Below are positions 1 through 1,976 of a stretch of DNA of 64,000 nucleotides, one piece after another. Every line of letters begins with the position of its first letter. Positions within the stretch are counted from its first letter, which is position 1. Both the position numbers and the translations under genes were made by a program. This stretch comes from Flavobacterium sp. (lineage in GTDB: Bacteria > Bacteroidota > Bacteroidia > Flavobacteriales > Flavobacteriaceae): contig JAKFBW010000055.1 of the NCBI GenBank assembly GCA_036676965.1, forward strand, positions 3,567 through 67,566. Reading direction: 5' to 3'. The notes below the pieces were generated by a model. It was given only the letters and a program-made list of their open reading frames with translations, was not told the DNA's origin and did no database searches.

Positions 1-1976
1 TTATTATTGTCAATCTTATCTTTGTTTTCAAAAGGATAATGCCATTGTGCATACGGCATAGAACCCGAATCGAACCAAACGTCAATCAAATCGGCCTCGC
101 GTTTCATCGGTTTGCCCGAAGCGGAAACCAAGGTGATTTCATCGACTACATTTTTATGCAAATCGATTAAATCATAATTGCTTTCGTCCATGTTTCCAAT
201 TTCAAAACCTTTGAAAGGATTTTCTTTTTGAAAACCTGCTGCGATTGCTTTTTCGATCTCGTTGTATAATTCCTCTACAGAACCAATCAAGATTTCTTCC
301 TGTTTGTCTTCGGATCTCCAGATTGGCAACGGAATCCCCCAGTATCTCGAACGGGATAAATTCCAGTCGTTGGCATTTTTCAACCAATTCCCGAAACGTC
401 CTTCCCCGGTTGCTTTTGGCTTCCAGTTGATGGTTTCATTCAGGTCAAACATCCGGTCTCTAACCTCGGTAATTTTGATAAACCAGGAATCAAGCGGATA
501 GTATAGAATAGGCTTGTCTGTTCTCCAACAATGCGGGTAACTGTGCACGTATTTCTCTACTTTGAAGGCTTTATTCTCTTCTTTCAAACGGATGGCAAGC
601 TCTACGTCTATCGAACGTTCCGGTGCTTCGCCTTCATTGTAATATTCATTTTTAACGTATTTACCACCGTATTCACCCATGTGTGAAGTGAATCTCCCTT
701 GTAAATCCACCAGTGGAACCGGAGTTCCATTTTCATCCAAAACCAACATTGGCGGTACTTCAGGCGTAGCTTCTTTGGCTACTTTCGCATCATCGGCACC
801 AAAAGTCGGGGCAGTATGTACGATTCCCGTTCCGTCTTCGGTAGTCACGAAATCCCCGGAAATTACCCTAAACGCATTTTCAGGATTCTGGTATGGCAAC
901 GCAAACGGCAACAACTGCTCGTAACGGATGCCGACCAAATCAGCTCCTTTAGATTCCGCTACGATTTGGTATGGTATCTTTCCTGCCTTGCCGGCAGGCT
1001 GGTTATCTCCGGCTTTGTAATTTTCAAAATCAGCCGCTTCTTCAGTGGCAAAAAATCCTTTTCCGAATTGTTTCCCCACTAAGTTTTTAGCCAGAATAAC
1101 ATTGATTGGCAAAAAGGTATATTGATTGTAAGTCTTAACTAACACATAATCGATTTTTGGGCCAACCGTCAAGGCAGTGTTTGATGGCAAGGTCCAAGGA
1201 GTCGTCGTCCAGGCAAGGAAAAAAAACTCACCCCAGCCCTCTCCAAAGGAGAGGGAGTCAAGTCCGAATGCTTTTTCGACAGAATTTTCGGTTCCCTCTC
1301 CCTCTCCTTTGGAGAGGGCTGGGGAGAGGACTTTGAATTGAGCAACAACAGTCGTGTCGGTCACATCTCTGTAACTTCCCGGCTGGTTTACTTCATGGGA
1401 AGACAATCCTGTACCCGCTTTCGGGGAATACGGTTGTATCGTATATCCTTTGTACATCAAATCCTTGTTGTAGATTTGTTTCAAAAGCCACCAAACCGAC
1501 TCCATATATTTGGGTTTATAGGTCACATATGGATCTTCCATATCTACCCAATACCCCATTTTCTCGGTCAAATCATTCCATACGTCAGTATAACGCATTA
1601 CCGTTTTTTTACAGGCTTCATTGTACTCTTCTACCGAAATAATTTTCCCGATATCTTCTTTGGTAATTCCCAAAGCCGCTTCGGTACCTAATTCCACCGG
1701 CAATCCGTGTGTATCCCAACCCGCTTTACGCTTTACTTGAAACCCTTTTTGTGTTTTATATCTACAAAAAATATCTTTGATAGCACGTGCCATGACGTGG
1801 TGAATTCCCGGTAATCCGTTGGCCGAAGGTGGCCCTTCAAAAAATACGAATGGTGCATTTCCCTCACGGGTAGTTACACTTTTCTCAAATATGTTTTCCT
1901 GCTTCCAAAAATCAAGAACTTCAGAGGCCACCACAGGCAAGTCAAGTCCTTTGTATTCAGTAAATTTTGTGCTCAT
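1..1976 (-). CDS. ileS: Isoleucine--tRNA ligase, 5' part (runs off the window start; not in the supplied ORF track)
   Basis: Manual translation from ATG at 1976: MSTKFTEYKGLDLP...FFEGPPSANGLPGIHHV (HIGH-type motif), GWDTHGLP, LAWTTTPWTLPSN (editing domain), GTGIVHTAP, DWNLSRSRYWGIP, DVWFDSGSMP. The frame stays open to position 1. Confidence 0.97.
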   Translation of the reverse strand, partial: MSTKFTEYKGLDLPVVASEVLDFWKQENIFEKSVTTREGNAPFVFFEGPPSANGLPGIHHVMARAIKDIFCRYKTQKGFQVKRKAGWDTHGLPVELGTEAALGITKEDIGKIISVEEYNEACKKTVMRYTDVWNDLTEKMGYWVDMEDPYVTYKPKYMESVWWLLKQIYNKDLMYKGYTIQPYSPKAGTGLSSHEVNQPGSYRDVTDTTVVAQFKVLSPALSKGEGEGTENSVEKAFGLDSLSFGEGWGEFFFLAWTTTPWTLPSNTALTVGPKIDYVLVKTYNQYTFLPINVILAKNLVGKQFGKGFFATEEAADFENYKAGDNQPAGKAGKIPYQIVAESKGADLVGIRYEQLLPFALPYQNPENAFRVISGDFVTTEDGTGIVHTAPTFGADDAKVAKEATPEVPPMLVLDENGTPVPLVDLQGRFTSHMGEYGGKYVKNEYYNEGEAPERSIDVELAIRLKEENKAFKVEKYVHSYPHCWRTDKPILYYPLDSWFIKITEVRDRMFDLNETINWKPKATGEGRFGNWLKNANDWNLSRSRYWGIPLPIWRSEDKQEEILIGSVEELYNEIEKAIAAGFQKENPFKGFEIGNMDESNYDLIDLHKNVVDEITLVSASGKPMKREADLIDVWFDSGSMPYAQWHYPFENKDKIDNN
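982..998. repeat. Mini-palindrome CCTGCC-TTGCC-GGCAGG inside ileS (encodes PAGKAG)
   Basis: 6-bp stem with 5-nt loop read directly; lies in frame within ileS. Confidence 0.7.
1227..1328. repeat. REP-like doublet inside ileS (27-bp perfect inverted arms, each itself a CCCTCTCC-AAA-GGAGAGGG hairpin)
   Basis: 1231-1257 CCCCAGCCCTCTCCAAAGGAGAGGGAG is the exact reverse complement of 1298-1324. A near-identical arm lies intergenically at 31264-31290. Confidence 0.92.

Follow-up and report, generated by a model that had tools for sequence, protein, structure and literature searches.

Among the described systems closest to the one considered here are the Rickettsia palindromic elements (RPEs), palindromes of ~100-150 bp that occur between genes and also in frame within unrelated housekeeping genes, where they are translated as extra surface peptides (Ogata et al. 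2000, reviewed in PMC10969869). Repetitive extragenic palindromes (REPs) are GC-rich hairpin units of 20-40 nt, mostly intergenic and occasionally intragenic, arranged as singletons or as inverted dimers (REPINs), and the gene of their enzyme, the REP-associated tyrosine transposase (RAYT), is itself flanked by inverted units (PMC3733652). The DUF559 nucleases have been classed with Vsr and with the homing endonuclease I-Bth0305I (PMC3424549), and VsrA, a DUF559 protein, causes DNA damage in Caulobacter (PMC12907096). Here we analyzed a 64,000-nucleotide stretch of a Flavobacterium sp. contig (JAKFBW010000055.1), hereafter the window, in which an element with inverted hairpin arms is translated within ileS, the gene encoding the type 2 isoleucyl-tRNA synthetase (IleRS). 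This element is probably a short, nuclease-less derivative of an in-frame, non-splicing selfish element that carries DUF559, tolerated by the synthetase as a surface loop. To our knowledge, in-frame palindromic repeats such as RPEs have gone for 25 years without any associated enzyme; a repeat family tied to a nuclease makes the spread of in-frame repeats directly testable.

The closest matches of the ileS product were Flavobacterium IleRS proteins of 1133-1152 aa, 87-93% identical (best 120 relatives, all Flavobacterium). The element spans ~100 bp, adds ~34 residues and is delimited by inverted arms of 31 nt (97% complementary, 40 nt between them) with a perfect core of 27 nt, each arm forming in addition an 8-bp mini-hairpin of its own. 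The frame remained open throughout, giving ...AQFK-VLSPALSKGEGEGTENSVEKAFGLDSLSFGEGWGEFFF-LAWTTTPWT by translation, the very peptide written in the initial annotation of this DNA, which had described a ~100-bp element with inverted arms in frame in ileS. The predicted peptides of the long-allele IleRS loop region were GEGEGTENSVEK, AFGLDSLSFGEGWGEFFF, and AFGLDSLSFGEGWGEFFFLAWTTTPWTLPSNTALTVGPK, and the RNA of the whole element was predicted to fold with -73.7 kcal/mol (z = -8.8 versus shuffles). The arm 24-mer occurred three times in the window versus none expected from 100 shuffles, the third copy having a single mismatch in 24 nt. That copy corresponds to the intergenic one previously placed at 31264, and its match of 26/27 over the 27-mer used there was reproduced. 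The same annotation had called the arm a dispersed REP-like repeat, which agrees with these three window copies and with the occurrence of the arm at no fewer than 119 loci elsewhere.

The connection with a DUF559 nuclease, whose search had also been suggested initially, was found in loci outside the window. Arm pairs bracketed a DUF559 domain (PF04480; Vsr-like PD-(D/E)XK) placed in frame within an IcmF-like mutase (L014, L070) and the Lhr helicase (L023). Similarly, in L019, a metagenome-assembled genome (MAG) of Bacteroidota (GFS_6009), a 1171-codon open reading frame (ORF) on the minus strand encoding leucyl-tRNA synthetase (LeuRS) carried three solo arms in addition to a full DUF559 element at the CP1 junction, which makes four family insertions in one essential gene, two of the arms bracketing the native conserved LeuRS segment LP..TGEPPLAR..W. 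The domain was identified in these four loci with Pfam E-values of 1e-31 to 1e-35, and full-length relatives matched PF04480 at 1e-31 to 1e-39, above the gathering score, the ileS element itself being devoid of nuclease; the arm-bracketed domain also matched PDB 3hrl. A HMMER scan with a free-standing DUF559 protein (P0125) retrieved about 19,700 cluster representatives with E below 1e-3, and among the best 149 of them, 67 were at least 300 aa long and had an internal DUF559. The hosts confirmed by Pfam comprised IleRS, LeuRS, SpoIIE phosphatase, RecQ, SpoIID, MetH, a Type ISP restriction enzyme, RecJ, and a DegT aminotransferase. Of the 67 in-frame copies, 65 had an intact core motif DF.C..IE.DG..H, and Pfam revealed no Hint/intein domain in the inserts or in ten host proteins, only DUF559 and MTES_1575 being found besides the host domains. 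Arm-like Pro/Gly-rich peptides were recovered by a crude regular expression at 41/106 N-sides and 47/105 C-sides of DUF559, compared with less than 1% of shuffled flanks, and inspection by eye indicated that nearly all internal copies were flanked by arm-type peptides.

Moreover, DUF559 was found at the exact site of the ileS insert. In Bacteroidales-type IleRS (P0245 and the metagenome loci L150-L155), the nuclease lay between ..FK and LAWTTTPWT, and the inverted arms around it were perfect and belonged to a different subtype, AGCCCCCTAAATCCCCC-TCA-GGGGGACT, the gene-sense first arm of two Flavobacterium ileS alleles (P0023, F. sandaracinum) being of nearly this subtype. Relatives without the element had short unrelated loops of 16-25 residues. 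The domain stood 3-4 codons upstream of the motif WTTTPWT (IleRS) or TTRPDT (LeuRS). L155 (metagenome contig Ga0123356_10007828) had an IleRS insert of 313 residues, in which five tandem short arm-spacer units flanked a DUF559 element. In every short spacer, ~36 nt from the start of the nuclease segment (DELTSRSYN) were joined to ~25 nt from its end (IALSQS). Since these spacers are the joined ends of that segment, the short units are internal-deletion derivatives, comparable to mini-inteins and located at the same site as the element of the window.

The distribution of the arm was assessed with the exact 21-mer CCCTCTCCAAAGGAGAGGGAG, and the counts that follow refer to the matches listed. The carriers included Mucilaginibacter, Chitinophagaceae, Flavobacterium, Bacteroides, Cytophagales, Prolixibacteraceae, Chryseobacterium, and Ignavibacteria/Chlorobiota, besides single Myxococcota and Saccharibacteria MAGs. 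The conserved unit was of 32 nt, CCTC[A/T]CCCC-RR-CCCTCTCC-AAA-GGAGAGGG-AG, and at least 27 of 117 arms were paired with an inverted arm at a distance of 14-127 nt, most commonly about 40 nt, as in ileS. Around 22% of the arms (27/121) lay within stop-to-stop ORFs no shorter than 250 aa, with IleRS, the valyl-, leucyl- and alanyl-tRNA synthetases (ValRS, LeuRS, AlaRS), asparagine synthase, HtpG, TrpD, IcmF, and Lhr as in-frame hosts. The arm-bearing IleRS had it at the equivalent of the ileS site in L024 and L081 and at another site in L027, while arms stood directly before TIATTRPET in ValRS (L062, L025) and before VFTTRPDT in LeuRS (L026, L019, P0156, and others), sites homologous to that of IleRS, both matching the position before LAWTTTPWT. 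The arms were open in nearly every reading frame, coding for Pro/Ser/Gly/Glu-rich peptides of the LTPALSKGEG and SLSFGEGWGE type. All 14 coding-strand copies of the exact 21-mer read LSKGEG, a bias that is due in part to the chosen 21-mer and to orthologous sites; a fixed arm frame imposed by the nuclease ORF was discarded, as variant arms read SPKERG before DUF559 (L014, L019). The exact 21-mer was also present in 18 viral contigs, and in IMG/VR contigs L136, L141, and L145-L147 it was in frame within long ORFs, including terminase-like and portal-like proteins; phages may help to carry the arm repeat between hosts.

Among the best 120 IleRS relatives, the loop fell into four classes. The first was short, with 19 residues of the KALNETLPNFLEGFGDIHI type, and the second, arm-bearing and of 31-38 residues, was found in many Flavobacterium species. 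The third, AT-eroded, was present in F. lacustre, NG2, and GP15, and its DNA was significantly similar to the arm-bearing form (z = 3.6-7.7). Class D (the F. rhamnosiphilum type, e.g. L122) had 38 AT-rich residues' worth of sequence (28% GC; KVIDAHKELLFSKFYDYISSNNLLHYKLETLDLDEIYF), as long as the arm-bearing allele, and no significant DNA similarity to the arm-bearing element (z at most 2.4); it dominated the 63-residue length bin in which 84 of the 120 matches were placed. The loops of F. lacustre and NG2 are AT-eroded versions of the ileS element, forming a decay series. A loop of the same length and sequence in all orthologues, which had been named at the outset as the outcome that would speak against an insert, was not what the alignment revealed. 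In fact, long and short alleles interleaved on the IleRS tree, built after removal of the loop, and two IleRS proteins, P0002 (long) and P0022 (short), differed outside the loop at 5 of 1133 residues (99.6% identity). Their genes had a background divergence of about 2.4%, and the swap was limited exactly to the stretch between CAATTC and TTAGCTTGG, where 114 nt were exchanged for 57 unrelated nt. This sharp exchange and the interleaving of the alleles indicate that the loop site is in active turnover. The ileS event is a replacement and not a simple insertion, in line with the initial suggestion that part of the native loop had been replaced, while the idea of a repeat family peculiar to 'this strain' was not sustained, the insert being common to many Flavobacterium species and the family phylum-wide. 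As a separate observation, the L174-L176 IleRS proteins, which lack the element, had tandem DLKD repeats in the same loop, encoded by repeats of the palindrome-containing unit AAGGACCTTAAGGAC; here repeats of a different sort may have driven the loop.

The arms were also conserved at the DNA level. Four-fold degenerate sites differed by 49-60% between the ileS of the window and each orthologue, which corresponds to saturation, and nevertheless the gene-sense first arm was identical to that of L128 in 32/32 positions and the 19-nt mini-hairpin was identical in four species. In F. seoulense the arm was CCCTTTCC-AAA-GGAAAGGG, a compensated change, and the arms of other species, CCCCTCC-TTY-GGAGGGG or CCCCC-GAA-GGGGG, were still hairpins. 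This near-identity in the face of synonymous saturation indicates that the arms are constrained as nucleic acid. The pairing of CCCCAGCCC with GGGCTGGGG in the window was represented in Flavobacterium sp. 123 by that of CCCCGACCC with GGGTCGGGG. Over ten orthologues, the fraction of paired cells was 86% for the two local hairpins and 87% for the long-range helix, compared with about 60% for slid controls, and the doubly changed pairs numbered two and five, respectively. This is moderate evidence of pairing conservation, given that the sequences are related and that the structure was derived from one of them. As for the spacer, its residues K-A-F were kept via synonymous changes (GCA/GCT, TTC/TTT), which indicates that it is translated and under protein-level selection. 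An intramolecular triplex (H-DNA) was considered, for the flank CCTCTCCC mirrors the stem in the ileS of the window, and was rejected, as the commonest phylum-wide variant, CCTCACCCC, breaks the mirror.

In the protein, the closest solved structure was that of P. megaterium IleRS2 (8c8w), in whose sequence alignment the query residues 218-251 had no counterpart. At this point 8c8w presents the strand ..TVKFKV, a 5-residue turn connecting two beta strands, and then YFLGWTTTPWT, which fits the tolerant surface position assumed initially. The insert lies 3-4 codons before the threonine-rich motif WTTTPWT, whose editing role is established for class Ia synthetases. It thus extends the tip of the beta-hairpin linking the catalytic core with the CP1 editing domain, and with a loop at this hinge an effect on editing or on the translocation of the tRNA 3′ end is conceivable.

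Based on these data, we propose the following scheme. The unit of the family is the 32-nt arm, in which an 8-bp CT/GA mini-hairpin comes after a C-rich flank and which is found solo or as inverted pairs, and the full-length members are arm-nuclease-arm units translated as an internal domain of the host protein, devoid of a splicing module, in which the arms would act as flexible linkers. The short form in ileS would have arisen most likely by internal deletion of a full-length element, or else from an arm dimer mobilised in trans, at a structurally permissive beta-hairpin tip adjoining the ultra-conserved WTTTPWT codons, whose homologous spot is occupied in LeuRS and ValRS, and its product would be a roughly 34-residue surface loop tolerated by IleRS. 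The arms would be kept uniform by a process that acts on the DNA and is distinct from protein selection, the candidates being nuclease-driven gene conversion or homing and the Vsr-type T:G repair of extruded hairpins, and the same process would also yield the turnover of long and short alleles. DUF559 would be the enzyme that spreads or maintains the arms, either as a homing-type nuclease, an option raised by its grouping with I-Bth0305I (PMC3424549), or as a Vsr-like T:G nickase, which by restoring C:G pairs in extruded hairpins would explain the presence of perfect GC-rich arms in a low-GC genome. A broader and more tentative reading, which we regard as possible, is that of a new class of selfish elements, non-splicing in-frame 'domain parasites' in which DUF559 stands between hairpin arms doubling as Pro/Gly-rich linkers. 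Such elements would home to conserved positions in essential genes, in particular the CP1 junction of IleRS, LeuRS, and ValRS, would be expressed within the host protein, and would decay to arm-only relics, like the ileS copy, that seed phylum-wide REP-like repeats. We see a considerable chance that the arm-DUF559-arm unit should be regarded as a separate class among in-frame selfish elements that do not splice.

Several observations weigh against the origin of the ileS element from a DUF559 unit. There was no DUF559 gene in the window, and none was seen in a Flavobacterium locus among the loci examined; 90 of the 117 arms were solo; and the interiors of paired arms were unrelated from locus to locus, so that the repeated unit is the arm and not a 100-bp consensus, unlike a classical MITE (miniature inverted-repeat transposable element) with a conserved interior. 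The frame of the arm relative to DUF559 varied (LSKGEG in L070, SPKERG in L019), and the resemblance of the window spacer (..SVEKAFGLD) to the end of the DUF559 C-terminal helix ([IV].K.A[LF]..) is only suggestive. The ileS element had no target-site duplication or flanking direct repeat, the short allele holds 57 nt of its own sequence and hence is no simple empty site, and no divergent flanking tract, as expected of co-conversion, accompanied the P0002/P0022 swap, for which conversion from a near-identical donor is neither proved nor excluded. The AlphaFold2 model of the 658-residue N-terminal part with 34 close homologues had a mean predicted local distance difference test (pLDDT) of 37, too low for any structural claim, which leaves the sequence alignment to 8c8w as the sole source of the surface-loop placement. 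Lastly, the action of DUF559 on the arms is a proposal from sequence.

Part of these points would be expected under the chief rival explanation, according to which the arms are an independent REP-like repeat, depending on another enzyme or maintained by a host function such as mRNA 3′-end protection, protein binding, or nucleoid structure. DUF559 would then merely prefer to insert into or next to arms, and the ileS copy would be an arm dimer in a tolerant loop that was never a nuclease element. The prevalence of solo, intergenic arms, the unrelated spacers, and the lack of DUF559 in the window agree with it, as do the presence of only five DUF559 domains in 876 kb around 121 arms and the existence of pairs that bracket terminator-like hairpins (L031) or native host sequence, such as the L019 LeuRS segment. 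We judge it unlikely, however, since DUF559 was flanked on both sides by correctly inverted arms across very different arm subtypes and lineages, as expected if arms and nuclease travel together, since the short units of L155 were made by deletion of the nuclease, and since no other candidate mobilising gene was seen beside the arms.

A local origin would have the long allele grow in place from an arm-like native loop, via palindrome-generating template switching followed by quasi-palindrome correction. It finds some backing in the resemblance of the short Flavobacterium loop TLPNFLEGFGDIHI to the right-arm peptide SPPLEGLGEDLYF, in the weak to moderate similarity of short-loop DNA to some long alleles (z up to 5.0), and in the left junctions of the long alleles, which differ by two codons (FKVLSPAL.. 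versus FLTPTL..). Local growth nevertheless fails to explain why the same 32-nt arm recurs unchanged at over 100 unrelated loci of other families, and in other IleRS genes this site holds full DUF559 elements, which makes this origin quite improbable.

The ileS insert is no assembly artefact. The region was present in four independent metagenome runs (soil, aquatic, groundwater), whose Logan unitigs broke only within the arm, with k-1 overlap and an arm word depth of 12-27x that of the flanks, the expected behaviour of an arm that is a multi-copy 31-mer. The arrangement was also found in isolate genomes of other species, complete genomes included, always in frame and with no stops. A transcript lacking the segment had been named initially as contrary evidence; the metatranscriptome contig of a relative kept it, running from the ileS flank through the spacer to a variant arm with no joints reported, which is weak evidence that the insert is retained in RNA. 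It is therefore hardly credible that the segment is absent from the mature protein, whether as an assembly artefact at a repeat, as the unitig breaks might suggest, or through removal or bypass directed by the very stable 31-bp RNA stem (-73.7 kcal/mol, a plausible RNase III substrate), considering the many independent in-frame assemblies, the KAF core kept via synonymous changes, and that contig.

Elsewhere in the window, the repeat family was represented by the copies listed in Table 1, among them an intergenic paired element with variant arms. The initial annotation had counted inserts at 982 and 49841 as two further candidate events, but neither the arms nor the arm motif of the ileS repeat was found at 982 or at 49838-49901, and these inserts are unrelated to it. 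The first is a single-copy hairpin that adds seven residues (NQPAGKA) to IleRS and is common to one of 14 aligned orthologues, that of Flavobacterium sp. GSA192 (P0052), which itself has the short allele at the arm site. The second is a weak AT-rich inverted repeat in mfd, the gene of the transcription-repair coupling factor. As both lie outside the arm family, the 'three events in 64 kb' do not form one process, while the repeat-to-protein process postulated at the same time is strongly supported by the loci outside the window. An Rfam scan of the window at gathering thresholds returned only two Flavo-1 RNAs and nothing at the ileS element, for which an E-value scan gave solely generic hairpin matches (miRNA precursors) far below threshold, and a known RNA family was discarded. 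Other recurring intergenic hairpin families, for example AACCGCAGATTCGC/GCGAATCTGCGGTT and TAGTCCTTAGTCCCTAGT/ACTAGGGACTAAGGACT, were distinct from the arm family and look like terminators built of shared repeat units.

Table 1. Positions in the window of the ileS element, of the other arm copies, and of further hairpins and RNA motifs.
Feature	Position	Strand	Basis or remark
ileS (type 2), N-terminal 658 codons	1..1976	minus	Translation; start at 1976, gene passes the left end of the window
IleRS variable loop, residues 215-253, between ..VVAQF and LAWTTTPWT; long (arm-bearing) allele	1218..1334	minus	Orthologue comparison
Gene-sense first arm, CCTCTCCCC-AG-CCCTCTCC-AAA-GGAGAGGG-AG, encoding LSPALSKGEG	1298..1329	minus	Inverted-repeat and copy searches
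Spacer of 40 nt encoding EGTENSVEKAFGLD	1258..1297	minus	Inner bases lengthen the hairpin; KAF core kept via synonymous changes in orthologues
Gene-sense second arm, CT-CCCTCTCC-TTT-GGAGAGGG-CT-GGGGTGAGT, encoding SLSFGEGWGE	1226..1257	minus	Inverted-repeat and copy searches
Inverted arms of ileS	1227-1257 / 1298-1328		
Mini-hairpin CCCTCTCC-AAA-GGAGAGGG (8 bp)	1237-1255		
Mini-hairpin CCCTCTCC-TTT-GGAGAGGG (8 bp)	1300-1318		
Intergenic solo arm, CCTCTCCCC-AA-CCCTCTCC-AAA-GGAGAGGG-AG	31259..31290	plus	~20 nt upstream of a minus-strand gene that starts with MKTKLY
Third copy of the arm 24-mer	31265-31288		
Possible eroded partner of the solo arm	about 31330-31388		
Intergenic paired element, variant arms CCCCTCC-TAA-CCTCCCC-AAA-GGGGAGG ... 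CCCCTCC-TTT-GGAGGGG-TT-GGGGAGG	32256..32352	plus	Missed in the initial annotation
GC-rich 17-nt hairpin in ileS, CCTGCC-TTGCC-GGCAGG (CCTGCCTTGCCGGCAGG)	982-998	minus	Single-copy
mfd ORF	47591..51046	minus	
AT-rich inverted repeat in mfd	49838-49901		12 nt, 83%, 40 nt apart
Flavo-1 RNA motif (RF01705)	42434-42532	plus	64.3 bits, above gathering threshold
Flavo-1 RNA motif (RF01705)	51806-51899	minus	59.8 bits, above gathering threshold
Other recurring intergenic hairpin families	14899-14962, 19154-19215, 19687-19762, 21202-21265, 21705-21771, 28532-28592		

These findings have implications beyond the window. IleRS, LeuRS, ValRS, RecQ, RecJ, and MetH appear to tolerate loops of 30 residues and a nuclease domain of 130-190 residues at fixed permissive sites, which is relevant to how proteins evolve by domain insertion and to the engineering of insertion-tolerant sites. 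Moreover, the findings suggest a possible biological role for the very large DUF559 family and explain a source of mis-annotation, in which host proteins lend their names to the small DUF559 proteins that parasitise them. For example, a 132-residue free-standing DUF559 protein (P0126) was named 'methylmalonyl-CoA mutase' by its source, likely by annotation transfer from IcmF proteins with an in-frame DUF559.

Compared with the known systems, the element shares with RPEs its size, its in-frame presence in unrelated housekeeping genes, its translation as an extra surface peptide, and its intergenic copies, but the resemblance is functional only. The host is a Flavobacterium, of another phylum, Rfam and sequence searches retrieved no related family, and the unit is a 32-nt arm with unrelated pair interiors, in contrast to the 100-150-bp consensus of RPEs, for which no associated enzyme is known, while the arm family is physically linked to DUF559. 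The likeness to REPs and REPINs comprises a 32-nt hairpin unit (three exact-core copies and two variant arms in the window), its solo and inverted-dimer arrangement, and an enzyme gene between inverted units. REPs of the GTAG and CGTC superfamilies carry a terminal GTAG or CGTC (TGTC/CCTC) tag beside the stem, and the CGTC type has an 8-9-bp stem starting with A/T pairs, a 4-5-nt loop, and a CCA tail (PMC3733652). The arm lacks both GTAG and a CCA tail, 7 nt separate its CCTC from the stem, whose first base is C, and the loop has 3 nt, so that the identity proposed initially holds as REP-like and not as a member of the GTAG/CGTC superfamily. Furthermore, the arm has an 11-nt C-rich flank and is shared in its exact form across a phylum, whereas REPs are species-specific, and the enzyme of REPs is a Y1 transposase of the IS200/IS605 type, whereas that flanked by arms is a PD-(D/E)XK DUF559 commonly translated within host proteins; no RAYT was seen, DUF559 being the enzyme found between arms, and no genome-wide search was made from the 64-kb window. 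The 31-nt arms are terminal inverted repeats like those of MITEs, but neither a target-site duplication nor an interior conserved from a transposase parent was found, the parent carrying a PD-(D/E)XK nuclease instead.

The resemblance to inteins and mini-inteins resides in the selfish, in-frame occupation of conserved sites of essential proteins, the possession of a nuclease, the nuclease-less forms derived by deletion, and a presence that varies among close relatives. Unlike inteins, the arm family has no detectable Hint or splicing domain in Pfam scans, its insert apparently stays in the mature protein, its ends are DNA inverted repeats, and the 34-residue ileS insert is too short for a mini-intein. 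As in homing elements, a nuclease lies in a conserved site of a conserved gene, present or absent among close relatives. With the Vsr/DUF559/I-Bth0305I group (PMC3424549; PMC12907096), the domain between the arms shares a clear DUF559 identity (E about 1e-33) and an intact core motif, while the known members are free-standing repair proteins or intron-encoded, none being described as a repeat-flanked internal host domain. No published description of the arm/DUF559 family was found in the searched open-access literature. The insertion in the methylase of phage ShiLan (PMC11855218) is similar in being neither intein nor intron, in being read through in frame, in its homing-type endonuclease, and in its predicted looping out; there, however, an HNH nuclease lies out of frame in one phage gene, whereas DUF559 shares the reading frame of its host, lies between hairpin arms, and occurs in dozens of cellular gene families.

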